DNA of 15,522 bases from Candidatus Eiseniibacteriota bacterium (GTDB taxonomy: Bacteria > Eisenbacteria > RBG-16-71-46 > DASYSL01). Under the pieces are notes generated by a model. The model was not told the DNA's origin. It made no database searches and saw only the letters and a list, made by a program, of their open reading frames with translations. Numbering within the stretch: position 1 is the stretch's first letter; each line of letters opens with the position of its first letter. The position numbers were made by a program, and so were the translations under genes. Shown one piece after another: positions 4 to 14,236 of the stretch. The stretch is taken from positions 1 through 15,522 of the forward strand of contig JANPEF010000096.1 in NCBI GenBank assembly GCA_031431875.1, given 5' to 3'.

Positions 4-1071
4 GTGGGTGGCGGTGCACCGGTGGCCGTGCAGTCGATGACCACCACGATGACGTGGGACGTCGAGGCGACACTGGCACAGATCAGGAGCCTCGCCGATG
101 CCGGCTGCGAGATCGTGCGCGTCGCGGTGCCCGACGAGAAGTCAGCCGATGCGCTGCCGCTGATCGTCCAGGGTTCGCCGCTGCCGGTCGTCGCCGACAT
201 CCACTTCACGTGGAAGCTGGGCCTCAAGGCCATCGCCGCGGGCGTGCACAAGGTGCGCATCAATCCCGGCAACATCGGCGGCGAGTCACGCGTGCGCGAG
301 ATCGTCGCCGCGGCGAAGGATCGCGGCATCCCGATCCGCGTCGGGGCGAACGCCGGGTCGCTGCCCAGGGAGATCATCGCGAAGTACGGCGTCCATGATC
401 CCGAGGGCATCGTCGAGGCGGCGCTGATCCCGATCCGCATCCTCGAGGACGCGGGGTTCGAGGACATCGTGGTATCGATGAAGGCGTCGGACGTGGGCCT
501 CGCCGTCGCTTCGTACCGCCTTGCCTCGAAGCGCATCCCATATCCGCTGCACATCGGCATCACCGAGGCGGGCTCGACGCGGCGCGGCTCGATCAAGTCG
601 GCGGTCGGCCTCGGCATGCTGCTCGAGGACGGCATCGGCGACACGATGCGCGTCTCGCTCACCGCCGATCCGGTCGAGGAGATCGAGACGGCGTTCATGA
701 TCCTCTCGGCGGTCGGCTTGCGGCAGCGGGGGCCCGAGGTCATCTCGTGCCCGTCGTGCGGTCGCTGTGACATCGACCTGATCGACCTCGCCACCGCGGT
801 CGAGCAGCGCGTCGCCGCGCTGAACACGAAGATCCCGCTCAAGGTCGCGGTCATGGGCTGCGAGGTGAACGGTCCCGGCGAGGCCCGCGACGCCGACGTC
901 GGCATCGCGGGCGGGCTGCACGAGGGGCTGATCTTCAAGAAGGGCGAGATCCTCCGCAAGGTGAAGGAGGCCACGATCGTCGACGACCTGATGGTCGAGG
1001 TCGAGAAGGTCCTGCGCGAGAAGGAAGCCCAGGCACGGGAGGCCGGCGCGGACTCGCCGGAAGCGCGATGA
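4..1071 (+). CDS. ispG: (E)-4-hydroxy-3-methylbut-2-enyl-diphosphate synthase (IspG/GcpE); true start probably upstream of the window
   Basis: GGGAPVAVQSMT N-terminal motif, VADIHF, RINPGNIG, PIRVGANAGSL, YPLHIGITEAG, GIGDTMRVSLT; [4Fe-4S] ligands in CPSCGRC and VAVMGCEVNGPGEA. The frame is open to the window edge and IspG usually has additional N-terminal residues. Confidence 0.97.
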   Translation: MGGGAPVAVQSMTTTMTWDVEATLAQIRSLADAGCEIVRVAVPDEKSADALPLIVQGSPLPVVADIHFTWKLGLKAIAAGVHKVRINPGNIGGESRVREIVAAAKDRGIPIRVGANAGSLPREIIAKYGVHDPEGIVEAALIPIRILEDAGFEDIVVSMKASDVGLAVASYRLASKRIPYPLHIGITEAGSTRRGSIKSAVGLGMLLEDGIGDTMRVSLTADPVEEIETAFMILSAVGLRQRGPEVISCPSCGRCDIDLIDLATAVEQRVAALNTKIPLKVAVMGCEVNGPGEARDADVGIAGGLHEGLIFKKGEILRKVKEATIVDDLMVEVEKVLREKEAQAREAGADSPEAR

Positions 1072-1549
1072 GGATTTCGAGTCGCGGTCAGTACGGCATC
1101 CGCGCCCTCGTCGTGCTGGCGGGGCGTCACGGACGGGGCCCGACGCAGGTGCGGGAGATCGCGCGCGTCGAGGCCCTGTCGGCGAAGTACCTGGAACAGC
1201 TCCTCGGCCGCCTGCGCACCGGCGGCCTGGTGCGGAGCGTGCGCGGGGCGCGCGGTGGCTACGTGCTGGCGCGCGATCCCGGGGCGATCACGGTGCGCGA
1301 GGTGCTGCTCCTGCTCGAGGGCTCGCTCGCACCGGTCGGTTGTGTCGACGAGGGCGGCACGTGCGGCGATGCCGCGGGGAACGCCTGCGTGGCGCACCCG
1401 CTGTGGCGCGGACTGCACGTGACGGTTCTCGGTTACCTGGATTCGTTCACGCTGGCGGACCTGGTTTCGGCCGCGGCGCCCGTGGAGGCGGTCCGTCCGG
1501 CCGCCCCGGCACCGGCCGAGGATGAGCTCGTGACCGCAGCGACGAGGGG

Positions 1550-1553
<4 letters not shown>
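1068..1553 (+). CDS. Rrf2 family transcriptional regulator, IscR-like (predicted Fe-S binding)
   Basis: [14 protein letters not shown] start, YLEQLL recognition helix (E43), [14 protein letters not shown] wing, C92/C99/C107/H110 cluster. ATGA overlap with the ispG stop. Confidence 0.93.
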
Positions 1554-2505
<952 letters not shown>

Positions 2506-2512
<7 letters not shown>

Positions 2513-3168
2513 GCGGCGTGGGCCCCACACGAACGATCGGCGTCTTCGCGTTGCAGGGGGACTTCGCACGCCATGCCGAGGCGTGGCAGAATCTCGGCGT
2601 GCCGGTCCGCGAGGTGCGCCGTGCGACCGACCTCGAGGGACTGGCGGCGCTCTCATTGCCCGGCGGTGAGTCGACGACGATGCTGCGGCTGCTCGCGGTG
2701 ACCGGAATGCGCGACGCGTTCGGCGCCGCGCTGGCGCGGCTGCCGGTGTTCGCCACCTGCGCCGGTGCGATCCTGGTCGGTCGCGATGCCGAGCGCCTGC
2801 CCGCTCCTCCGTTCGGCCTGCTCGATGCAGGCATCGCACGCAACGCCTACGGGACGCAGCTCGACTCGTTCGAGGCCGTGCTCGACGCGCCCGTGCTGGG
2901 TGAAGGCGCCACCTTCCGTGGCGTGTTCATCCGCGCGCCGCGCTTCCTCAAGCTGGGGCCGGGCGTCGAGCCGATCGCCCGCCACGGCACCGAGGTGGTC
3001 GCGGTGCGGCAGGGAGCGATTGTCGCGTTCGCGTTCCACCCCGAGCTGACCGACGACCTGCGGTTTCACTCGTGGTTCCTCGACACGATCGTGGCGTCGC
3101 ATCCGCTCGCCGCCACGTCTGCGGCCCCGGCGTCCGTGTCGGCGGCGACGCGTCCGGTGGTGGCATGA
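2506..3168 (+). CDS. pdxT: Pyridoxal 5'-phosphate synthase glutaminase subunit PdxT
   Basis: [21 protein letters not shown] (nucleophile Cys), [23 protein letters not shown] (His-Glu of the triad); immediately follows pdxS. Confidence 0.96.
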
Positions 3169-4211
3169 GCGCGCCCGACTTCTCGGCTTTCGACACGCTG
3201 GTCGCCACGAAGCAGAACTTCGTGCTGACCACCCACGTGAACCCCGATGGGGACGGCCTGGGCTCCGAGGTCGCGCTCGCGCTGTGGCTCAAGGCGCTGG
3301 GCAAGAACGCGACGATCCTCAACGACGGGCGCATGCCCGACAACTTCGAGTACCTGGCCGAGCACGTGGCGGTCGAGACGTTCACGTCCGAGCGTGCCGA
3401 GGAGGTCTTCGCCGCCGCCGACGTGCTGGTCGTGCTCGACATGCAGAACGAGGAACGCCTGGGCCGCCTGCGCCCGTACATTGCGCGCCCCGGCCTCACC
3501 GTCGCGATCCTCGATCACCATGTCGGCATACCCGCGTTCGGGACGGTGCATGTGGTGCTGCCCGAGAAGGCCGCCACCGGCGAGCTGGTCTACGACCTGA
3601 TCCGGCGCACGCCGGGCGCCCTGACCCGCCCGATGGCCGACGCCTTGTACACCGCGCTGGTCACCGACACCGGGTCGTTCCGCCACTCCAACACGGATCC
3701 CGACGTGCACTCGATGGCGGCCGCGCTGCTCGCGCTCGGCGTCGAGTCGGCGATCATCCAGTCGTGGATCCATCGCCACAAGCACATGAATCGCCTGCGC
3801 TTCGTCGGCCACCTGCTGACCAACCTCAAGACCAGCGACGACGGCTCGGTCGCGTGGTTCGAGGTCACGCCCGAGCTGTTCGCCCGGTACGACGTCGACG
3901 GCACCGATACCGAGGGCCTGGTCGACTTCCCGCGCACCGTCCCCGGCGTCGAGGCGGTCATGCTGCTGACCGACCTGGGCGATGGCCGCGTCAAGGCGAG
4001 CCTGCGCTCGTCGGGACGAGTCGACGTACACGGGGTGGCGAAGACGTTCGGCGGCGGCGGACATCGCTTCGCCGCGGGCGCCACGCTCGAGGGACCACTC
4101 GAGGCTGCGAGTGTGCGCCTCAGGGCCACGCTGGCGGCGGCCGTGGCCGGGCTCGATCCGACGGTGCGCGCCTATGCGCCCGCGCCGGGCACGGCGGGGG
4201 CCGCGCGCTAG
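3165..4211 (+). CDS. nrnA: DHH/DHHA1 family phosphoesterase (bifunctional oligoribonuclease/pAp phosphatase NrnA-like)
   Basis: THVNPDGDGLGS, LDHH, TDTGSFRH and KASLRS...GGGGHRFAAGA DHHA1 motifs. Start reassigned to the ATG at 3165 (ATGA overlap with the pdxT stop). Confidence 0.9.
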   Translation: MSAPDFSAFDTLVATKQNFVLTTHVNPDGDGLGSEVALALWLKALGKNATILNDGRMPDNFEYLAEHVAVETFTSERAEEVFAAADVLVVLDMQNEERLGRLRPYIARPGLTVAILDHHVGIPAFGTVHVVLPEKAATGELVYDLIRRTPGALTRPMADALYTALVTDTGSFRHSNTDPDVHSMAAALLALGVESAIIQSWIHRHKHMNRLRFVGHLLTNLKTSDDGSVAWFEVTPELFARYDVDGTDTEGLVDFPRTVPGVEAVMLLTDLGDGRVKASLRSSGRVDVHGVAKTFGGGGHRFAAGATLEGPLEAASVRLRATLAAAVAGLDPTVRAYAPAPGTAGAAR

Positions 4212-4823
4212 GTGAAGATCGTCGCCGAGGGACTCGGCGTTCGCCTGTCGGGCCGCGTGGTGTTCGCGGACGTCGCGTTCACGTGGAGTGGGCCCGGCCT
4301 GGTCACGGTGACCGGGCGCAACGGTGCGGGGAAGACGACGCTGCTCAAGGTGATCGCGGCGCTCCTGCGGCCCGGGCGCGGGGCGCTGCGCTGGGAACTG
4401 AACGGGGTCGGCGCGCTGACGCCGGCCGAAGCGCGTCGCCGTCTCGGCTTCGCCGGGCCCGAGCTGGGACTGTGGGAGGAGTTGAGCGCGCTCGAGAACC
4501 TCGCGTTTGGCGCGCGTGCGCGCGGGCTCGCCTGGAGCGACGCCGACGGGACTGCGTGGCTCGACCGCCTGGGCCTCGGGGACCGTGGCGGCGAGCGCCT
4601 GGCGACGTACTCGTCGGGCATGAAGCAGCGCGTGAAGCTCGCCTTCGCGATGCTCGGCGAGCCGGCGCTGGTGCTGCTCGACGAGCCGGGATCGAACCTC
4701 GATGACGACGGTCGCGTCGCCGTCGCGACGCTGGTGCACGAGGTGGCCCAGCGCGCCCTGGTCGTCGTGGCGACCAACGACCCCGCGGAAGCTGCGTGGG
4801 GCACGAACGGGGTGGCGCTGTGA
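4212..4823 (+). CDS. ccmA: Heme exporter ABC ATP-binding protein CcmA
   Basis: Walker A GRNGAGKTT, signature YSSGMKQR, Walker B LLDEP; about 200 aa; directly upstream of ccmB and ccmC. GTG start abuts the preceding TAG. Confidence 0.88.
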   Translation: MKIVAEGLGVRLSGRVVFADVAFTWSGPGLVTVTGRNGAGKTTLLKVIAALLRPGRGALRWELNGVGALTPAEARRRLGFAGPELGLWEELSALENLAFGARARGLAWSDADGTAWLDRLGLGDRGGERLATYSSGMKQRVKLAFAMLGEPALVLLDEPGSNLDDDGRVAVATLVHEVAQRALVVVATNDPAEAAWGTNGVAL

Positions 4824-5524
4824 CTCCTGGATCGGCGGCGGGCGGGAGCGGTGGCGGAGGCGGCAGCCTGCTGGGCACGGCCTGGGCCGTGTTCGCCAAG
4901 GACGTGACGACCGAGCTGCGTTCGCGCTACGCGGTCGCCGCGACCGCCACGTTCGCGCTGGCCGCACTCGCCGTGGTGAGCTTCGCGGTCGGGCCGTTCG
5001 GCGGAAGGGCGGAGTTGCTGGCCGCGTTTCTGTGGACGGTGATCCTGTTCGCCGCGGCGGCGGGGCTGGCGCAGGCGTTCGTCCGCGAGGCCGAGCGGCG
5101 CACCTGGCTCACGCTGCGACTGGTGGCTGCTCCGGGCGCGATCCTGCTCGGCAAGTGGGGGGTCAACCTCGCGGTGCTGGCTTCGATCGAAGTGCTGGTC
5201 GTGCCGGCGTTCCTGGTGATGTTTGGCGTCGAGTTCCGCTCGCTGCCCGCGTTCCTCGCGATCCTCGTGCTCGCGAACCTGGGCCTGTCGGCGTCGCTCA
5301 CGCTGGTCTCGGCGCTGCTCGCCCAGGCGCGGGCGCACGGCGCACTGGTCTCGGCGCTGGCGTTCCCGCTGGTCGTGCCGGTGCTGATGGCAGCGATCGT
5401 CGGCACGCGGCGAGCGTTCACCGAGCCGGGCGCGTGGCCGCCCGAGTGGCGCGTGCTCGCGGCGTACGCGGGCGTGGTGGTCGGAATCGGAGTCCTGCTC
5501 GCCGAGCACGTGCTCGACGACTGA
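4820..5524 (+). CDS. ccmB: Heme exporter permease CcmB
   Basis: AVFAKDVTTELRSRYA N-terminal motif, FVREAE, LLGKW, LAFPLVVPVL; about 6 hydrophobic segments; lies between ccmA and ccmC. Likely GTG start at 4820 (GTGA overlap). Confidence 0.9.
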   Translation: MTPGSAAGGSGGGGGSLLGTAWAVFAKDVTTELRSRYAVAATATFALAALAVVSFAVGPFGGRAELLAAFLWTVILFAAAAGLAQAFVREAERRTWLTLRLVAAPGAILLGKWGVNLAVLASIEVLVVPAFLVMFGVEFRSLPAFLAILVLANLGLSASLTLVSALLAQARAHGALVSALAFPLVVPVLMAAIVGTRRAFTEPGAWPPEWRVLAAYAGVVVGIGVLLAEHVLDD

Positions 5525-5554
5525 GATCCGGTCTCTAGGGAGGGATCGCGCATC

Positions 5555-6232
5555 GTGTGGTGGCGCTGGGGACTGTTCCTCTGGATGGCGGTCGTGACCG
5601 TTGCGGCGTTCCTCTACGCGCCGCTGGCGAAGAAGCTGTACGAGCAGACCCGGATCATCTACTGGCACATCCCGGTCGCGTGGGTGACGCTCGTCGCCTT
5701 CCTCGTCGCCGGCTGGCAGTCGTGGCGCTACCTTGCCACCCGCGACCTCGCCGCCGATGCGCGCGCCGCGGTGGCGATGGAACTGGGACTCCTGTTCTGC
5801 GGGCTCGCCACCGTCTCGGGCGCGATCTTCTCGAAGGGGATGTGGGGCTCGTACTGGAACTGGGACCCACGCCAGACCAGCATCTTCTTCCTGCTGCTCG
5901 TCTATGCCGCCGCGCTGACCCTCCGTGCCGCGGTCGAGGAGCCTGCCCGGCGGGCGCGTCTGTCGGCGGTGTACGGGCTTTTTGCGGCCGCGGTCACGCC
6001 GTTGTTGCTCTTTGTCGTGCCGCGGCTGTTCTTTACCCTTCATCCGGACCCGATTGTGAACTCGGCGGGCAAGCTCGAGATGCATCCCCGCATGTTCCAG
6101 GTGTTCCTCGCTTCCCTGGCCGGCTTTACGGGGATCTTCTTCTGGGTCTATGCTCTCGACGTGAGGCTCCGGCTCCACCAATTGGCGCGTGAGGGCGCGT
6201 GGACCGGCTCCGGAAAGGATCGTGCGGCGTGA
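5555..6232 (+). CDS. ccmC: Heme exporter/cytochrome c biogenesis protein CcmC
   Basis: RIIYWHIPVAW (His ligand), WWD motif KGMWGSYWNWDPRQTS, LHP (second His); about 6 TM segments; AGGGAGG Shine-Dalgarno at 5537-5543. Confidence 0.94.
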   Translation: MWWRWGLFLWMAVVTVAAFLYAPLAKKLYEQTRIIYWHIPVAWVTLVAFLVAGWQSWRYLATRDLAADARAAVAMELGLLFCGLATVSGAIFSKGMWGSYWNWDPRQTSIFFLLLVYAAALTLRAAVEEPARRARLSAVYGLFAAAVTPLLLFVVPRLFFTLHPDPIVNSAGKLEMHPRMFQVFLASLAGFTGIFFWVYALDVRLRLHQLAREGAWTGSGKDRAA

Positions 6233-6372
6233 ACGAGGTTCTCGGCAGGACGATCGGCGATCGCATCGTCGCCGACTACGTGGTGATGGTCGTTGCCCTC
6301 GTGGTGTGGGGCGCCATCTTCCTCTACCTGATGCGATTGGACCGCAAGGTCCGGGAGCTCGACAAGCGATGA
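6229..6372 (+). CDS. ccmD: CcmD-like small membrane protein (47 aa), not in the ORF track
   Basis: Translated by hand: MNEVLGRTIGDRIVADYVVMVVALVVWGAIFLYLMRLDRKVRELDKR. Single TM helix followed by a charged YLxRLDRKVRELD tail. GTGA overlap with the ccmC stop and ATGA overlap with the ccmE start; canonical position between ccmC and ccmE. Confidence 0.88.
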   Translation: MNEVLGRTIGDRIVADYVVMVVALVVWGAIFLYLMRLDRKVRELDKR

Positions 6373-6773
6373 AGCCCAAACTGATCTTCGGTCTTCTCCT
6401 CGTCGCCGCGTCGATCGCCTTCGGCGTGACCTCGTTCCAGAAGTCGCTCACCCCGTATGTCCCGTTTGCCGAGGCGCGTCGCTCGGGCCTGTCCTCGCAG
6501 GTCAACGGAACGCTGTCGGATCCTTCGACGGTCAGGTACAACGTGGACAAGGCCGAACTGGTGTTCGCCCTGCAGGACGACAAGCACGAGGTGTTGGAAG
6601 TCGTCTACAAGGGCGTCAAGCCGGCGAACTTCGAGCAGGCGACGAGCGTCGTCGCGATCGGCACGTTCAAGGACGGCCGCTTCGAGGCGGACCAGTTGCT
6701 CGTCAAGTGCCCGTCGAAATACCAGGCCGAGGGCGGCGCCACCGCCGCACCCGCCGCAGTGGGAGGCTCCTAG
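6369..6773 (+). CDS. ccmE: Cytochrome c maturation heme chaperone CcmE (CxxxY variant)
   Basis: Start reassigned to the ATG at 6369 (MKPKLIFGLLLVAASIAFG membrane anchor); VVYKGVKPANFEQATSVVAIG and FEADQLLVKCPSKY motifs. Confidence 0.95.
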   Translation: MKPKLIFGLLLVAASIAFGVTSFQKSLTPYVPFAEARRSGLSSQVNGTLSDPSTVRYNVDKAELVFALQDDKHEVLEVVYKGVKPANFEQATSVVAIGTFKDGRFEADQLLVKCPSKYQAEGGATAAPAAVGGS

Positions 6774-6775
6774 GC

Positions 6776-9010
6776 ATGCACGGGGATCCGGTCAACTTCG
6801 GCATCATTCTCACCTGGGCGACGTTCGCCTGCACGCTGCTCGCCGCCGGCGCGTTCCTGTTCGAGGGTCGCGGCGACGCGCGCTTCGCGCGCCCGGCGCG
6901 CATCCTCTTCGCGCTGCAGGCGGTGGGGCTCCTCGCGTTGGGCGCGTGGCTCATGCGCCTGTTCGTCACGCACGACTTCCGCTACGGCTATGTCGCCAAC
7001 TACTCGGCGCGGAACATGGACTTCAAGTACGTGTTCGCCTCGTTCTGGGGCGGCCAGGAGGGGACGCTCCTCATGTGGGCGATCTTCTCCACCGTGCTCG
7101 CCGCCATGATGCTGCGGGTGCGCAACCGGATCGTCCCGACCGCGATGTTCTTCGCCCAGTGGGCCCCCATCTTCCTCCTCTTCATCCTCACCGCGCAGAG
7201 CCCGTTCCGGCTGCTCGCCGTTCCGGCCACCGATGGCGCGGGCCTCAACCCGCTGCTGCAGGACCCGTGGATGACGATCCACCCGCCGACGCTGTTCTTC
7301 GGCTACTCGTCGCTCATCATTCCGTTCGCGCTCGCCATGGCCACGCTGGTCCATCGCGACGAAAAGGCCTGGCTACGCCTGGCGCCGCCGTTCGTGCTGT
7401 TCTCGACCGTCGTGCTGGGGCTGGGCTTCTCCATGGGCGGGCTGTGGGCGTACAAGGTGCTGGGCTGGGGCGGGTTCTGGGGCTGGGACCCGGTCGAGAA
7501 CGCGTCGCTCGTGCCGTGGCTCTTCAACGTCGCGCTGCTGCACGGACTGCTCGTCCAGCGGGCCACCGGGGCGCTGGCGCGCACGACACTGTTCCTCGGG
7601 ATCACCTCGTACCTGTTCGTGCTCTACGGTTCATTCCTCACGCGCTCGGGCGTGCTGGCCGACTTCTCCGTGCACTCGTTCGTCGACCTGGGGCTGTCGG
7701 GTTACCTGCTCGCCTACCTCGGGTTCTTCACCATCACGGGATACGGGGCGTGGCTGCTGCGCTCAGGCGCGATGGCACATCCGAACGCCCAACTCGGCGG
7801 CGCCTCGCGCGAGTTTGCTCTGTGGCTCGGCATGCTCGTGTTCTGCCTGATCGCGCTGCTGACCATGGCCGGCACGTCGGCGCCGCTGATCTCCCGCCTG
7901 TTCGGGCCGCCAGGAAACGTGGCGGTCGAGTACTACGACAAGGTGAACTCGCCGCTCGGGCTGCTGGTCTGCCTGCTGGTCGCGATCGGGCCGCTGGCGC
8001 GCTGGCGGCAGGAGTCGCCGAGGGGCATTTTCCGCGCAGCCGCCCCGGCGCTCGCCGCGGGCGTGCTGGCCGCGGTCGGGGCCCGGCTCGCCGGCATGAC
8101 GGACCCGCTCGACATCCTGCTCGTCTTCGGCGCCGTCTTCGCGCTGGTGGCGAACCTGTCGGTGCTGCTCAAGGCATCGCGCCGCGGGCTTTCGTATGCG
8201 GCGGGGTACGTATCGCACTTCGGCTTCGCCGTGATGCTGCTGGGCGTGCTGGTCTACTCGACGTTCGGAAGGGACCAGCAGATCGCGTTGCCGCAAGGCC
8301 GCACGGTCGAGGCGCTGGGGATGAAGCTGCGCTACGACGGCATCCGCAAGCAGCCCGACGGCAAGGACCAGCTCGCGGTCTTCGTCGAGCACGGCGGCAA
8401 GCGCTACGAGGCGCGGCCCGTGATGTGGTACAGCGAGTTCAACCAGTCGACGATGCGCAATCCCCACGTCGAGCGGGCGTGGAACAACGACATCTACCTG
8501 GCGCCGATCGAACTCAAGCCGGCGGAGGGCGGCCTGCCCACGGTCACGCTGAAGAAGGGCGAGAGCGGCGAGGCCGGCGGCGTGCGGCTGACCTTCCGCG
8601 AGTTCAAGCGCGAGGGCCAGATGGGCGACCCGAACGGGTTCTCGATCGTCGCCCTGGTCGCCGTGGGCGACGGGCCCGATGCACCGGTGATCATGCCGAC
8701 GATCGCGGTCACGCCGTACGGCATGACGAAGGCGCCGGTCGACCTGCCGGGCGGCGGGGCGGCGACGCTGGTGAACGTCGATCCCAACGGGGGCACCGCC
8801 GAGATCGCGATCCAGACCGCGGGTGCAGTGCCGCCGGCCGACGTGCTCGCGGTCGAGTTGTCGACCAAGCCATTCATCGGCCTCGTCTGGCTGGGGATGG
8901 GAATCCTGTTGTTCGGCGCCGGTTTGGGCATTCGGCGTCGGCTCGCGCTGGGACAGCGCGAGGATGCCGTGACCACGGCGGCACCCGCGCGCGTCGCGGC
9001 GGCGCCATAA
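6776..9010 (+). CDS. ccmF: Cytochrome c-type biogenesis heme lyase CcmF
   Basis: FWGGQEGTLLMW, GLNPLLQDPWMTIHPP, WGGFWGWDPVENAS (WWD), LLHG, LTRSG, SVHSF and SHFGF His motifs, C-terminal KPFIGLVW. ATG at 6776 is preceded by GGGAGG at 6761-6766. Confidence 0.96.
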   Translation: MHGDPVNFGIILTWATFACTLLAAGAFLFEGRGDARFARPARILFALQAVGLLALGAWLMRLFVTHDFRYGYVANYSARNMDFKYVFASFWGGQEGTLLMWAIFSTVLAAMMLRVRNRIVPTAMFFAQWAPIFLLFILTAQSPFRLLAVPATDGAGLNPLLQDPWMTIHPPTLFFGYSSLIIPFALAMATLVHRDEKAWLRLAPPFVLFSTVVLGLGFSMGGLWAYKVLGWGGFWGWDPVENASLVPWLFNVALLHGLLVQRATGALARTTLFLGITSYLFVLYGSFLTRSGVLADFSVHSFVDLGLSGYLLAYLGFFTITGYGAWLLRSGAMAHPNAQLGGASREFALWLGMLVFCLIALLTMAGTSAPLISRLFGPPGNVAVEYYDKVNSPLGLLVCLLVAIGPLARWRQESPRGIFRAAAPALAAGVLAAVGARLAGMTDPLDILLVFGAVFALVANLSVLLKASRRGLSYAAGYVSHFGFAVMLLGVLVYSTFGRDQQIALPQGRTVEALGMKLRYDGIRKQPDGKDQLAVFVEHGGKRYEARPVMWYSEFNQSTMRNPHVERAWNNDIYLAPIELKPAEGGLPTVTLKKGESGEAGGVRLTFREFKREGQMGDPNGFSIVALVAVGDGPDAPVIMPTIAVTPYGMTKAPVDLPGGGAATLVNVDPNGGTAEIAIQTAGAVPPADVLAVELSTKPFIGLVWLGMGILLFGAGLGIRRRLALGQREDAVTTAAPARVAAAP

Positions 9011-9012
9011 TC

Positions 9013-9052
9013 CCAGGCGAAGCCTGGAGGGTGCATTCGACCTCTGGAGGTC
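9013..9052 (+). other. Two short intergenic inverted repeats (CCAGGC-GAA-GCCTGG; GACCTC-TG-GAGGTC)
   Basis: Read directly at 9013-9027 and 9039-9052. No U-tract follows, so this is not a classical intrinsic terminator. Confidence 0.5.
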
Positions 9053-9066
9053 CCGGGAGGTTGGTC

Positions 9067-10056
9067 GTGAAGATCAGTCTTGTCTTGCTGCGCGGCGCCT
9101 TGCTCGCCGGCGTGACCGTGGGAAGCCTCTTTGTCGCCGGCTTTGCCGGCGCCGAAGTACAGGCATCCTATCAACAGTTCACCTCGGTCAATCTCGGTGG
9201 TGATCGCGCGCCGGCCTGGTCACCCGACGGCGCGTCGGTCTTCTACTCGACGCGGGTGGGCGGATTTCCCTACATCTATCGCAAGGCCTCGAACGCGCCG
9301 ATGAACACGACCGGCACGCGCCTGACGTCATGGGAGATCGAGGAGTTCTCGGTCGCCACCTCGCCCGATGGCGGGTGGGTCGTGATGTCGGCGCAGGACA
9401 CGCTCGGCTTCTCGCGGCTGTGGCGGTGCCCGGCGACCGGCGGCAGTCCATTGACATCCATGACCCGCGGACCGTTCGACTACCTCGATCCGCACTGGTG
9501 GGGAACGGGGCCGTCGCAGGAGATCGTCTTCACGACGTCGCGCGGCGGGGTGGGCTACCAGATCTGGACGCTGAAGCCCAACGGCACACAGTCCGCGACG
9601 CAGTTCACCGAGGTCACCGGGCCGGGGTACACCGATCTCCAGCCGTGCTTCTCGCCCGACGGGAATCACATCGTGTTCTCTTCGGATCGCGGCGGGGGAC
9701 GGCAGTTGTTCGCCTGCACCCGCGCCGGGGATGCGTGGGGGACGCCGGTGCAACTGAGCGGCGGCGCGGGGAGCAAGTCGCAGCCGGCCTACTCGCCGAC
9801 CGGCCTGACCATCGCTTACCAGCAGGCGAGCGGCGGCACGTCGCTGTGGATCATGGACGCCACCGGGGCGAACCCGCGGCCCATCACCGACGGCTCGGGC
9901 AGCTACGACGGAGAGCCGTCGTGGTCGCCGTTGACCAGCCAGATGGCTTTCGTGTCGGATCGCTCGGGTGCCGGGTACATCTGGCTCGTGAACGACGTCT
10001 CGACCGCGGCCGAGAACTCGACGTGGGGACGCATCAAGGCGCAGTACCGCCAGTGA
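9067..10056 (+). CDS. Secreted TolB-like/PD40-repeat beta-propeller protein with C-terminal TWGxIK motif
   Basis: GTG start after GGGAGG (9055-9060); signal-peptide-like [29 protein letters not shown]; repeats [25 protein letters not shown]...VFSSDR, PAYSPTG, PSWSP...AFVSDRSG; ends [12 protein letters not shown]. Confidence 0.85.
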
Positions 10057-10066
10057 AAGGGCGCGC

Positions 10067-10540
10067 ATGACGACGCTGTTGCAGAAGGAGCCCGTGATCG
10101 GAGAGGCGGCGCCGGACTTCACGCTGCCGTCGACCAGCGGCAAGCCGGTGACCCTGTCTTCGTTCGTCGAGTCGAAGAACGTGCTGCTGGCGTTCTTTCC
10201 GCTCGCGTTCACCTCGGTCTGCCGCGCCGAGATGTGCGCGTTCTGGGACGACGTCTCGCGCTTCGAAGCGCAGGACACGCGCGTGTTCGGCGTGTCCGTG
10301 GACCACACCGCGTCCCAGCAGGCGTTCCAGGAGAAAGCCGGCTTCCAGACCGAGCTCCTCTCCGACTTCAAGCGCGACGTCTCGCGCGCCTACGGCGTCC
10401 TGATCGAGGACGCGTTCTTCTCCAGGCGCGCCTACTTCTTCATCGACAAGCAGGGCATCCTGCGCTGGAAGCACGTCGAGGAGAAGCTCGCCGACAAGCG
10501 CGAGAACGCCGACCTCCTCGACGCGATTCGCGCGTCCTGA
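10067..10540 (+). CDS. Peroxiredoxin (AhpC/TSA-redoxin family, AhpE/BCP-like)
   Basis: [10 protein letters not shown], peroxidatic motif [10 protein letters not shown] (PxxxTxxC), [20 protein letters not shown] with the conserved Arg. Confidence 0.92.
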
Positions 10541-11673
10541 GCTCGCTTCCCCTGGTCGATCCCATCCTGCCCGCCGCCACCGCCGCCGATCCCATCGTTG
10601 GCGGCCTCGTCGCGTTCGTGCCGCCGGTGCGCATCCTCGTGCTCGGCGGCGCGGATCGCATGCGCTTCCTGCAGGCGCTGGTGGCGCAGGATCTCGACGG
10701 GCTCGCCCCGGGCGAGGGCATCCACGGCGCGCTGACCGACGATCGCGGCCGCCCGATCGCGGATTTCCACCTGTACGTGCTCCCCGAGGCGCTGCTGCTC
10801 GAGCTGCCGGTGGGCCGCGCCGAGGAGGCTCGCGCCGCACTCGATGGGCGCATCATCGCCGACGACGTGCGCACCGCGTGGGCTTCCGGTGGAGTCGTGG
10901 CGTACGAGTCATCGGATCCTGGGCAGTTGGCCATCGCGTCGGGTTCACCCAGGCAGGGCGGGCCGTTGGACAGTCTTGGCGATCCTGCGCCCGGCGTCGG
11001 CTTCGCCGACGGGACTGGCTTCGCGGAGGATGATCCCGCGCTCGAAGACGAGGCCGTGCTCGCCACCGTGCCTGCGGTGCGACATGCGGTGCTCCGTGCG
11101 TCGCGCCTCGGCGGCTTCGGCGCGCTGCACTGGTCGTCCGTCGATCGCATGGTCGAGCTGGCGGCCGTTGCCTCCGGCGGATCCGGCGTGACGGTCGCTC
11201 TGTCGGCGACGCAGCTCGACCTGCTCGAGATCACCGCGGGTCGCATCGGGGCCATGGAGCTGGCCGAGGCTAGGGTGTGGAACGAGCTGGGCATGATGGC
11301 CGCCGTGAGCCTGACGAAGGGCTGCTGGATGGGACAGGAGATCGTGCGCCGCGTCCACGTGCTCGGCGAGACCAGGCGCGTGCTTCGCGGGCTGACGCTC
11401 GATGTTCCCCACGGAGTCGACTGGGCGGGCGCGGCACTCGAGGATGCCGTCGGCGCTGCCGCCGGCGTCGTCACTCGCGCGTCCCGCGCCCCCTCTCTCG
11501 ATGCGACCGTGGGCCTTGCGTTCGTGCGCCGCGACTGCGTGGTGGGTGCGGCGCTCACGGCCGTCCGCGCCGACGGCGCCCGCGCGCCGGCCCTCGTGCG
11601 CGCCCTGCCTTTCGTGACGCGACGCCCGGTGGGCGTGGCGCCGCCTTCGTGGCTTCCCCAGGAGACTGCATGA
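10537..11673 (+). CDS. YgfZ/GcvT-family folate-binding protein (Fe-S cluster maturation/repair); start uncertain
   Basis: [41 protein letters not shown] (variant of the YgfZ KGCYxGQE signature), GVVT...GLAFVRR C-terminal domain. Start may be the CTG at 10537 or the GTG at 10618. Confidence 0.85.
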
Positions 11674-13364
11674 CCGACGTTCCCGACCTGCCGACCACCC
11701 CCGGCCCGACCGCGGTGCCAAGCCCGACGCGCCGCTCGTTCCCCGCGTCGGATCGCTTCATTCCCAAGCCCGAGCGCGTGTTCGTCAACCGCAACCTGCG
11801 CTTCTCGCAGGTCGCCGCGGTCGGCTTCGACCTTGACCACACGCTCGCGCACTACGATGCCATCCCGATCGAGAAGCTCGCCTTCGAGCTGACCAAGAAG
11901 AAGCTGGTCGAGAAGCGCGGCTACCCGGCCGAGGTCCTGCGCTTCCGCTACGACCCGACGTTCGTCGTGCGCGGCCTGATCGTCGACAAGGTGCGCGGCA
12001 ACCTGATCAAGATGGATTACTTCCGCTACGTGTCCCGTGCGGTGCACGGCACGAAGCGGCTCGACGCCGACGAGCGCGACCGCCTGTACAACGACCGCAC
12101 GCCGCGTTTCTCCGGTGACGGGTTCGTGTCGGTCGACACGCTGTTTCACTTGCCGGAGGTGCACCTCTATCTCCTGCTGATCGATCTTTTCGAGCGCAGG
12201 GGGGAGCGGCCGGACTTCGCCGGCCTGTACGCCGACGTCCGCGCGATGATCGACGAGGCGCATGGGGATGGCTCGCTGAAGGCCGTGATCACGAAGAACG
12301 TCGGCAACTTCGTGCGTCGCGACCCGCGCCTGCCGGTGTTGCTCGAGGAGTTCCGCCGTGCGGGGAAGAAGCTGTTCCTGCTCACCAACTCCGAGTGGTA
12401 CTACAGCGCCGCGCTGCTCGAGCACCTGCTCGAGCGCAGGAAGAACGATCGTTCGTGGGAGCGCTTCTTCGACTACATCGTGGTCTCGTCCCGGAAACCA
12501 TCGTACTTCGCGATCGAGGCCGGCGTGGTCGCCGGGGAGTTCGTGGTGAGCACGACGGGCGTGCCCGCGTGGTCCGGCGGCAACGCGGCCTACCTCGAGC
12601 AGGAGATGGGCGTCGGTGGTGACCAGATCCTGTACTTCGGTGATCACACCTACGGCGACATCCTGCGCTCCAAGCGTTCGCTCGGCTGGCGCACCGCGAT
12701 GATCGTGCCCGAGGTCGAGCGCGAGGTCGCGGTCACCCACGAGCAAGCGCGCTCCTACAAGACGCTCGAGCGCCTGGCGAACGAGCACGACCAGCTCGAA
12801 CTCGAGAAGGCGGCGCGCGGTCGCGAATGGCGCGAGCTGTCGCTCTCCCTCGGTGGCGACGATGACGAGGACGCAGCGTTGGTGCTCGCAATCTACGATC
12901 CGCGCGTGCGGCAGGCGGGCGCGGGGCGCGCGGGTTCGGCGGGCGCGGGTGCGGCCGTCAACGGGGGGACGGCGACCGGCGGGACCGAGAACGGCGACCT
13001 GCCCGCCCGGCTCAAGGCGCTCCTGGCCGGCACCGGTAGCGGACCCGGCGGCCGGCGCACACGCGGCGATCGGCGGCGCACGGCGAAGCTGCGCGAACTC
13101 GAGGAGCTGGCGCACAGGATTGCGGACTTGGACCACCGCGCCGCATCGCTGGCCGGCCGCATCAAGTCGCTCCGGCGCAAGGTGGAGGCGGCCTACAACC
13201 CGACGTGGGGCTCGATCTTCCGCGTCGGCAACGAAGCCAGCCGCTTCGGCCACCAGCTCAAGGACTTCGCCTGCGTCTACACGAGCGACGTGGCGAACTT
13301 CCTGCACTACCCCTGGAACTACTACTTCCTGTCGCCGGGGAGTGTGATGCCGCACGATCTGTAG
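11670..13364 (+). CDS. HAD-IG family 5'-nucleotidase (cytosolic cN-II/NT5C2-like)
   Basis: VFVNRNL, motif I GFDLDHTL, RGLIVDKVRGNLIK, DTLFHLPE, motif II FLLTNS, RKPSYF, motif IV YFGDHTYGDI, GWRTAMIVPE, WGSIFR, ACVYTS, MPHD end. ATG at 11670 with AGGAG Shine-Dalgarno and ATGA overlap. Confidence 0.93.
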   Translation: MTDVPDLPTTPGPTAVPSPTRRSFPASDRFIPKPERVFVNRNLRFSQVAAVGFDLDHTLAHYDAIPIEKLAFELTKKKLVEKRGYPAEVLRFRYDPTFVVRGLIVDKVRGNLIKMDYFRYVSRAVHGTKRLDADERDRLYNDRTPRFSGDGFVSVDTLFHLPEVHLYLLLIDLFERRGERPDFAGLYADVRAMIDEAHGDGSLKAVITKNVGNFVRRDPRLPVLLEEFRRAGKKLFLLTNSEWYYSAALLEHLLERRKNDRSWERFFDYIVVSSRKPSYFAIEAGVVAGEFVVSTTGVPAWSGGNAAYLEQEMGVGGDQILYFGDHTYGDILRSKRSLGWRTAMIVPEVEREVAVTHEQARSYKTLERLANEHDQLELEKAARGREWRELSLSLGGDDDEDAALVLAIYDPRVRQAGAGRAGSAGAGAAVNGGTATGGTENGDLPARLKALLAGTGSGPGGRRTRGDRRRTAKLRELEELAHRIADLDHRAASLAGRIKSLRRKVEAAYNPTWGSIFRVGNEASRFGHQLKDFACVYTSDVANFLHYPWNYYFLSPGSVMPHDL

Positions 13365-13431
13365 CTGATCGGGCAGGAGAGCGCGGGCAACTTGCGTCGC
13401 CGCAACTTGACACATGGCGGGTCGGCCCAGT

Positions 13432-13461
13432 TTGCGAGCGCCTGACGGTAGCGTGTAGCAT
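13432..13461 (+). promoter_or_regulatory. Possible sigma70-type promoter for the downstream secreted protein
   Basis: TTGCGA (13432-13437), 18-nt spacer, TAGCAT (13456-13461); GGAG Shine-Dalgarno at 13487-13490 before the ATG at 13499. Consensus match only. Confidence 0.3.
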
Positions 13462-13498
13462 CGTGGGCTTCCAGCCCTGATCCTCCGGAGAACTCGCC

Positions 13499-14236
13499 AT
13501 GCGAGATTTGATTCGTCCATTCGTCAACGGCCTGGCGCTCGCCGCCCTTGTGGTTGCCCCATCGCCAGCCGCCGCAACGACACTCGATCTCTCCTGGGAC
13601 GCATGCACCCCCGTGATCACCAACAAGGTCCCCACGGGGTCGCCGCCCGACCCGATCGTCCTCGTGGTGCGCGCCGTGGGGCAGGTCGATCCGCACACGG
13701 GATTCGAGTTCCGCATCGACATGGAGGACGCCGGTGCGGTTCTCCCCGATGCGTGGCGATTCGATCTGGCGGGTTGTCCCGGCGAAGGGTTCATCTCGAT
13801 CCGCACCGACCCGACCACGGCGGCCTGTCCCGCTTTCCAGGGACTCCCTGCGACCGTTCAGACCGGGATCCGCTATGAGCCCTACGCGCTCCCCGGGCCC
13901 CTCGGCGCGCCGCCCTTCCGATTCGCCCTTCTCGTCTCGAGCCGATATCCGGTGACCGGCGCCCCGCCGGCCGGTGCGATTCGTTCCCTCGTACGGGTCG
14001 TCTTCAATCACCGATTTTCCGTGCTGGGTCCGTCGGATCCTGGAATCAACTGCGGAGGATTCGAGCGGAATCTCTGCCTGACTGTCCACCCAGGATCCGC
14101 TCGGTGGTTCGACGCGAGTGGAACACCGGTTCCCTTCGACGTGGGTCAGTCGTGGCTCACCTTTCGGGGAGAGTGCTACCCCGTTCCGGTCGCGCCGACG
14201 ACTTGGGGAACGATCAAGGGGCAGTTTCGGAGGTGA
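13499..14236 (+). CDS. Hypothetical secreted protein, 6 Cys, with C-terminal TWGxIK motif
   Basis: Shine-Dalgarno GGAG; signal peptide MRDLIRPFVNGLALAALVVAPSPAAA; mature region begins TTLDLSWDAC, is beta-strand-like and has 6 Cys; ends PVAPTTWGTIKGQFRR. Confidence 0.8.
   Translation: MRDLIRPFVNGLALAALVVAPSPAAATTLDLSWDACTPVITNKVPTGSPPDPIVLVVRAVGQVDPHTGFEFRIDMEDAGAVLPDAWRFDLAGCPGEGFISIRTDPTTAACPAFQGLPATVQTGIRYEPYALPGPLGAPPFRFALLVSSRYPVTGAPPAGAIRSLVRVVFNHRFSVLGPSDPGINCGGFERNLCLTVHPGSARWFDASGTPVPFDVGQSWLTFRGECYPVPVAPTTWGTIKGQFRR

Follow-up and report, generated by a model that had tools for sequence, protein, structure and literature searches.

A 17-residue C-terminal tag on small exported proteins of Eisenbacteria and related phyla, a candidate minimal signal for type IX secretion

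The locus described here raises the question of why two otherwise dissimilar proteins of one bacterium end in almost the same short sequence. The window, i.e., the whole stretch of 15,522 nucleotides that was analysed (contig JANPEF010000096.1, Candidatus Eiseniibacteriota bacterium, assembly GCA_031431875.1), encodes a beta-propeller protein and a Cys-containing beta-sandwich protein, and 7 of 11 residues are identical in their C-terminal tails (10021-10056 and 14201-14236), with the W located 10 residues before the stop in both. The pair had been noticed in a sequence-only reading of the window, which proposed a modular C-terminal tag on varied proteins with signal peptides. The tag is real, widespread and far more numerous than the two copies first noticed. 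It occupies the slot where related proteins carry the roughly 100-residue C-terminal domain (CTD) of a type IX secretion system (T9SS), and therefore is likely an export signal to the cell surface. We put the chance that it is a minimal helical T9SS targeting signal, replacing the CTD on small proteins, slightly above even. The relevant features of the window are as follows.

9067..10056, + strand: gene for a PD40/TolB-like beta-propeller protein of 329 amino acids, tagged (PF07676, E 3.8e-23; score below the TolB equivalog cut-off)
9067..9153, + strand: predicted Sec signal peptide of the propeller (sequence, simple heuristic; putative cleavage after AGA)
10003..10014, + strand: upstream element T-A-A-E of the propeller, W-7 to W-4, resembling a T9SS cleavage-site linker, in a conserved register
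10021..10056, + strand: tag core of the propeller (sequence, position matrix)
13499..14236, + strand: gene for the Cys-containing beta-sandwich protein of 245 amino acids, tagged, with a weakly cohesin-like predicted fold
13499..13576, + strand: predicted Sec signal peptide of the beta-sandwich protein (sequence and homologue alignment; putative cleavage after AAA)
14183..14191, + strand: upstream element V-P-V of the beta-sandwich protein, W-7 to W-5 (sequence)
14201..14236, + strand: tag core TWGTIKGQFRR-stop of the beta-sandwich protein, with a predicted helix over WGTIKGQF

Both proteins start with a hydrophobic, signal-peptide-like segment, as had been read from the sequence. When the last 20 residues were cut off, the best BLASTP E value was 0.19, which is not significant, and the two proteins are otherwise dissimilar, as claimed. 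Neither Pfam nor NCBIfam gave a match for the 245-residue protein. For the propeller, the named proteins nearest to it come from Eisenbacteria, and all of its full-length orthologues (45/45) retain the tag, the 2 without it being fragments. Two details of the original motif had to be revised. The Q is not conserved (14 of 64 seeds), and what was described as a Ser/Thr/Pro/Ala linker does precede both tails, but is rather an element fixed in position, [VTSI][PAGSD][VAIT] at W-7 to W-5, in 55 of the 63 carriers found in the source genome.

These carriers were identified in the source genome of the window (G000; 3.75 Mb, 98.45% complete) by our own gene calling, which gave 3170 genes with imperfect starts; the 63 tagged genes fall into 48 families. 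The tag has 17 residues, and its consensus from the G000 position matrix is [PS]-[TV]-P-[AV]-x-x-x-[ST]-W-G-[RGS]-[VIL]-K-x-x-Y-R, followed by 0-1 residue. W, G and K are near-invariant and keep a fixed spacing across phyla, and the net charge is +2 or +3 in 54/63 G000 tags. In a six-frame scan of G000 with [ST]WG.[ILV]K..[YF], 62 matches were obtained, and the W was 9-10 residues from the stop in 60 of them, 13 residues in one and 19 in one. With the looser pattern WG.[ILVM]K, 65 of 77 matches were located 9-10 residues from the stop, as compared with 0.15 expected from the internal rate. The position matrix gave 65 matches above 34 bits, all terminal, and then a gap down to 22. No other enriched C-terminal motif was detected among the 647 remaining G000 proteins with signal peptides. 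Degenerate or lost tags were also observed (G000 C91, C75, C24 and C78): two tails read WGWIRSDDR and WGQLKFFDC, a third case is a remnant of 36 codons, and in a paralogue the sequence stops immediately past the PVPV element.

Signal peptides, called by a simple heuristic rather than SignalP, were found in 51/63 carriers and in 733/2719 other G000 genes (p 2e-18); some of the misses are due to mis-called starts, including that of the second tagged gene of the window. The tag is thus strictly C-terminal, is enriched on proteins with signal peptides, and is far from confined to the two founding proteins, which are not full-length homologues, so that the proposal of a modular tag is supported, none of its three refuting conditions having come true. 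The G000 carriers are Cys-rich and small (median 240 residues, maximum 492, versus about 680 for CTD proteins), and only 2/63 have a membrane segment. Outside carriers are similar in size, with at most 500 codons in 72 of 74 closed reading frames (6 more frames are open), and 62 of the 71 sampled belong to no Pfam family. A size exception is a 1168-residue protein of the Poribacteria genome G151 (L176:1101-4604, - strand), which has a tag variant with F for W and no NCBIfam match; its gene lies upstream of, and opposite to, a SprA-like gene. The maximum 19-residue Kyte-Doolittle mean was 1.19 across the 63 tails, i.e., there is no transmembrane segment, in agreement with the earlier view that the tag is not a membrane anchor. 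A lipoprotein or Tat route was rejected, since only 1 lipobox and 0 twin-arginine patterns were present in the 63 carriers.

A DNA pattern including the stop codon matched 139 of 151 genomes of the phylum, with about 1,600 matches, while the reversed control gave 1 match in total. Nine of the 12 pattern-negative genomes were rechecked, and all of them matched a looser pattern, at any position, at low counts. A scan of GTDB gave at least 121 matching stretches, 80 of them titled. Among the matches listed, the titled stretches comprise at least 23 from Eisenbacteria, 5 from Krumholzibacteriia or Effluviviaceae, 4 from Latescibacterota, 2 from Poribacteria, 1 from Zixiibacteriota, 1 from Cloacimonadota, 8 labelled Fibrobacteraceae or Fibrobacter, 5 with other labels and 31 without a name, each of these numbers being a lower bound. 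The translated tails of the GTDB stretches follow the same consensus. The statement in the sequence-only reading that such tails occur in Eisenbacteria, Krumholzibacteriota, Latescibacterota and Poribacteria was borne out by records of all four (Krumholzibacteriia for the second). A loose DNA pattern applied to five outside genomes was too noisy for counting (135 matches in G151 versus 72 in the control).

Poribacteria have a variant, [LTF]-[APD]-V-[ED]-P-x-x-K-L-[AT]-T-T-W-[GA]-x-[LIV]-K plus 1-6 residues, which was terminal in 36/36 rows (from 30 of 75 matched places). Therefore, the core of the tag is [ST]-W-G-x-[ILV]-K. The upstream part, x-[APD]-V-[ED], has its V in 35/36 rows, and because Poribacteria keep it at a longer spacing to the core, it behaves as a separate element. 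Two observations concern the labels of single records. The records labelled Fibrobacteraceae or Fibrobacter (L017, L019, L020, L048-L050, L068 and L076) have 56-70% GC, and the labels may be wrong; four of these genomes were checked, and contain 16-35 tags each. A lone tagged protein (L051:83-1075, + strand) is located on a 2.2-kb contig with 27% GC that bears the label Woesearchaeota; its genome matched neither SprA nor C25, and transfer or mis-binning may be the cause.

The strongest evidence for a link to the T9SS is the exchange of the tag with the CTD on related proteins. In G000, the two are never combined: 0 of 169 CTD proteins are tagged, and 0 of 63 tagged proteins match the genome's own CTD hidden Markov model (HMM). 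The family of the second window protein has 2418 representatives; among the best 150 of them, 119 are short and tagged, 12 have neither end and 0 have both, and 19 of the 20 long members have a CTD end. Several of the long members show a Cys, followed by a TPV-like stretch, a further domain and the CTD. Some long members (P0109-P0113 and others) look like scaffoldins, with up to five cohesin-like domains, spacer domains and a T9SS CTD. Of 120 single-domain homologues in the DNRLRE family, 90 end in the tag and 22 in a CTD; the rest comprise 1 PEP-CTERM-like tail and 7 other tails, which resemble tag variants by eye. Both tagged and CTD forms also occur among the NHL and DNRLRE paralogues inside G000. 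Thus, in three passenger families, homologues end in the tag or in the CTD, never in both. The junction is comparable as well: in the DNRLRE rows in which the anchor matched, positions +4 to +6 past the last strand are mostly [VT]-[PA]-[SAVT] before the tag (75 rows) and [VT]-[GD]-V before the CTD (19 rows). In this family, the three residues with which the tag begins share their register with the cleavage-site-like linker of the CTD.

The machinery of the T9SS is present in the source genome. SprA and PorU were both detected above the cut-off, the PorU gene is followed by a PorV-family gene, and 7 PorV-family matches exceeded the cut-off. The PorV beside PorU has one close orthologue in each of 61 phylum genomes (61/61). 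The 169 CTD proteins end in a FlgD-like (PF13860) T9SS CTD, and three of those tested reached the TIGR04183 cut-off. A CTD gene is a neighbour of 14/63 tagged genes, as compared with 48/720 other signal-peptide genes (p 1.6e-4). Of the 15 outside genomes in which at least 5 tags occur, 14 gave a SprA match, the exception being G156, and 3 of 4 SprA-negative outside genomes hold only 1-2 tags. Both Poribacteria genomes have SprA-like open reading frames (ORFs) of more than 2200 amino acids, which score below the cut-off, together with PorV-family and C25 genes. GldM/PorM (TIGR03517) gave no match in G000, but the control genomes did not match either.

No dedicated shuttle was singled out, because each genome has too many PorV paralogues for that (7-17 matches), and no tagged gene was found within four genes of the nine G000 PorV-family genes inspected. 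Profiling within the phylum for a tag-specific gene failed, as the 12 pattern-negative genomes are not clean negatives. A type II secretion route was rejected: the two secretins of G000 are PilQ and a Tad-locus secretin, and GspD exceeded the cut-off in 0 of 61 genomes. Among the neighbourhoods of the T9SS genes, one contains porU, porV, an M6-like CTD gene and then two unannotated genes (L170:9245-11043, G000 C58), candidate accessory parts of the T9SS; for the first of these, there are DUF5683-like look-alikes and, next to the Poribacteria porV, a homologue. In G000 C106, C75, C147 and C145, PorV-family genes share recurring clusters with large, barrel-like genes and with proteins whose ends are CTD-like.

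The shape of the tag was then considered. The AlphaFold model of the 245-residue protein (15-sequence alignment) is a beta-sandwich with a mean predicted local distance difference test (pLDDT) score of 80.8; in its tail, a linker with pLDDT below 50 precedes a helix over WGTIKGQF (model residues 210-217, pLDDT about 53). A Foldseek search with this model gave cohesins as the best matches (TMq about 0.4, root mean square deviation 6-11). In the G000, outside and Poribacteria sets alike, the centred Fauchere-Pliska moment has its maximum near 110 degrees and there exceeds all 200 shuffles. A beta-strand form of the tag, suggested by an uncentred calculation, was dropped after the centred scale and the AlphaFold helix. 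The tag core is therefore predicted to be an amphipathic helix, as had been proposed from the spacing of its residues. We treat the helix as predicted, not established, because the two moment calculations disagree.

Taken together, these data suggest the following route. A tagged protein would be exported first by Sec, through its predicted signal peptide. A PorV-family shuttle at the SprA pore might then bind the terminal amphipathic helix; cleavage of the [TV]-[PA]-[AV] element by PorU, at its [TV]/[PA] bond, would release or anchor the protein outside the cell. The sequence-only reading had left the export or attachment machinery open; the evidence points to the T9SS of G000 as the likely machinery and not to a wholly separate machine. 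Several published results, cited here and below from the available parts of the texts, are consistent with this route. The targeting signal of one CTD was mapped to its last 22 residues (PMC4804311), different CTD types use different shuttles (PMC12618676), and the PorU consensus is PT/GI (PMC11969387), which the [VT]-[GD]-V before the CTD in the DNRLRE rows resembles. The wider proposal is that Eisenbacteria, Krumholzibacteriota, Latescibacterota and Poribacteria have a type IX system with two signals, and that a helix of 17 residues suffices in it for SprA export and PorU cutting of small folded proteins. We advance it tentatively, at a little less than an even chance.

A number of observations weigh against the tag as a minimal T9SS signal. 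The T9SS signals described in the literature consulted are beta-sheet structures with motifs B, D and E, the shortest having 40-55 residues (PMC11969387 for length); in the tag, both the motifs and the beta-sheet are absent. In 49/64 G000 tags the putative cut is followed by Pro, which the available text of PMC11969387 does not list as a tolerated +1 residue of the PorU site. The strict CTD-type sequence [VT][GADS][VI] was found at W-7 in only 1/63 G000 tags. In the accessible part of PMC4804311, PorU is called sequence-independent, and hence the shared upstream element may be only a linker. The helix has low confidence in AlphaFold, and with the uncentred Eisenberg moment 100 degrees was not above the shuffles and the peak was at 170-180 degrees. 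The DNRLRE family represents one exchange, not many, because its CTD forms make up one clade (quick tree, 83/120 rows), and a CTD-bearing paralogue was detectable for only 5/63 G000 carriers. The co-occurrence of tag and SprA is confounded by kinship. There is no clean tag-negative set, since all 23 genomes rechecked, tag-poor ones included, match the looser pattern. G156 has 18 tags and no SprA match, with C25 peptidases present and a fragmented assembly. Finally, the size limit on tagged proteins is not explained by a minimal T9SS signal.

This limit is accommodated better by two other explanations. If the tag were a docking peptide, i.e., a mini-dockerin that binds a CTD-bearing carrier or scaffold, small proteins would leave the cell piggyback or be held on the surface, and SprA and PorV would never read the tag directly; this would explain the restriction to small proteins and also fits the exchange against the CTD. 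The weakly cohesin-like predicted fold of the second window protein and the scaffoldin-like long forms of its family, with 2-5 domain copies and a CTD, are in line with such a scheme. However, none of the 8 G000 HMM matches of that family has a CTD, the fold match is weak by the Foldseek values given above, and the cleavage-site-like element is left without a role, and we regard docking as unlikely. The size limit may instead suggest a different pore, namely a dedicated translocator or protease confined to these phyla and unrelated to the T9SS. The tag is structurally unlike all CTDs, and the unannotated genes of the porU-porV cluster, one with a homologue beside the Poribacteria porV, are in line with this idea. 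But no candidate emerged, and the junction register common with CTDs and the adjacency to CTD genes point to the T9SS; a separate machine is rather improbable.

A basic amphipathic helix might also bind the membrane or an envelope polymer directly, so that small proteins are kept in the envelope uncleaved and no dedicated receptor is needed. The positive net charge, the centred moment near 110 degrees, which beats the 200 shuffles in three sequence sets, and the helix predicted after a low-confidence linker all agree with this idea. Against it, near-invariant W, G and K and an upstream element in fixed register probably exceed what lipid binding usually needs, Poribacteria tags often stop 1-5 residues past K and leave the helix short on that side, and passenger domains elsewhere bear outer-membrane export signals. 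We consider direct binding of this kind improbable to a similar degree as the separate machine. A degenerate PEP-CTERM or IPTL-CTERM-type signal processed by an exosortase is far less probable than any of these. Some tags read like PVEPATWG and presumably resemble PEP-CTERM variants with W at the same spacing, one DNRLRE homologue has a PEP-CTERM-like tail in the same slot, and tagged NHL proteins show similarity, below the cut-off, to ScyF, a PEP-CTERM protein. This reading is largely refuted, as the 63 tails lack a transmembrane segment and no exosortase match was found in G000, G151, G152 or G153; the tag-poor genome G022 has one, and G155 has both.

The tag was compared with known sorting signals, of which the type A CTD of the T9SS (TIGR04183, the PF13860 form, and the short CTDs of Prevotella intermedia) is the closest. 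Both signals are C-terminal, occur in many copies on unrelated Sec-exported carriers in the same genomes and take the same slot on homologous passengers, and the tag, like the CTD, may follow a PT/GI-like linker (again as far as the available text of PMC11969387 goes), its upstream element having the register of CTD linkers in one family. The requirements for type A cargo, namely a signal peptide, a position at the extreme C-terminus, and SprA, PorV and PorU in the genome, are also shared by the tag. The tag differs in its length (about 17 versus 40-100 residues), in its predicted helix instead of a beta-sheet, in its limitation to small proteins, in having neither motifs B, D and E nor a model match, and, in G000, in its mostly Pro +1 position. 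Type B CTDs with PorP/SprF shuttles (TIGR04131) are an example of one T9SS that reads a second signal via other barrels, in the parts available of PMC12618676, and several paralogues of the PorV family are present in G000. Type B CTDs exceed the tag in length and usually have the gene of their shuttle next to their own, whereas no tagged gene is near the nine G000 PorV-family genes.

Among the signals outside the T9SS, dockerins are defined by a duplicated calcium-binding repeat; the tag is one short predicted helix, its consensus has no such repeat, and no dockerin Pfam match was found in 71 carriers. The likeness to the cohesin-dockerin system lies in one passenger family, which weakly resembles cohesins and includes CTD-bearing forms with several copies of the domain. 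IPTL-CTERM, one of the tripartite signals, has a WG pair. The tripartite signals (PEP-CTERM, IPTL-CTERM, MYXO-CTERM and LPXTG) share with the tag a short signature, a basic end, many copies, signal peptides and unrelated carriers, and the tag has at least 3 near-invariant residues, a C-terminal position and many copies, without a transmembrane helix or an exosortase (bioRxiv 10.1101/2023.06.07.544157, available part). According to the same source, rhombosortase and myxosortase substrates need a membrane helix, which the tag does not have.

The NCBIfam sorting-domain models matched 0 of 80 tails, the tag falls within no Pfam family in 71 carriers, and the ESM Atlas, searched with the last 30 residues, yielded nothing but clusters without a name, below 0.9. 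The tag is outside every known CTD or PEP-CTERM-type family. No description of it was found in the literature, where an earlier mention is possible because subscription journals were mostly outside the coverage; no publications were found on Eisenbacteria and type IX secretion or on Poribacteria and a C-terminal motif, and nothing relevant on LPVEL-type motifs. The tag is apparently undescribed so far, and probably works like a CTD.

The other genes of the window are also worth describing. Positions 4-4211 hold a single run of ispG, an Rrf2 regulator, pdxS, pdxT and a DHH/DHHA1 phosphoesterase gene. Within 4212-10540, genes for cytochrome c maturation (by Pfam, a CcmA-like ABC ATPase, CcmB, CcmC and CcmF) form a cluster that leads straight into the tagged propeller gene and an AhpC/TSA gene; it includes an ORF at 6369-6773 with a CPSKY motif, which we take to be CcmE-like. 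A 5'-nucleotidase family protein is encoded at 11670-13364, and its C-terminal half holds a long Gly/Ala/Thr-rich insertion.

The tag labels a large, otherwise anonymous secretome, as seen from the 63 proteins of G000 and the number of matches in the 151 phylum genomes. If it is read by the T9SS, the rule that the signals are folded beta-domains fails, and the minimal recognition by SprA and PorV becomes testable with a peptide; a tag of only 17 residues for outer-membrane export would, in addition, be of use in engineering. If it is read by another receptor, it offers a way to discover a new route of export or anchoring in uncultured phyla. Should the two-signal system be true, T9SS signals would gain a new class, smaller than any known, with tens of carrier proteins in each genome and a range of several uncultured phyla.

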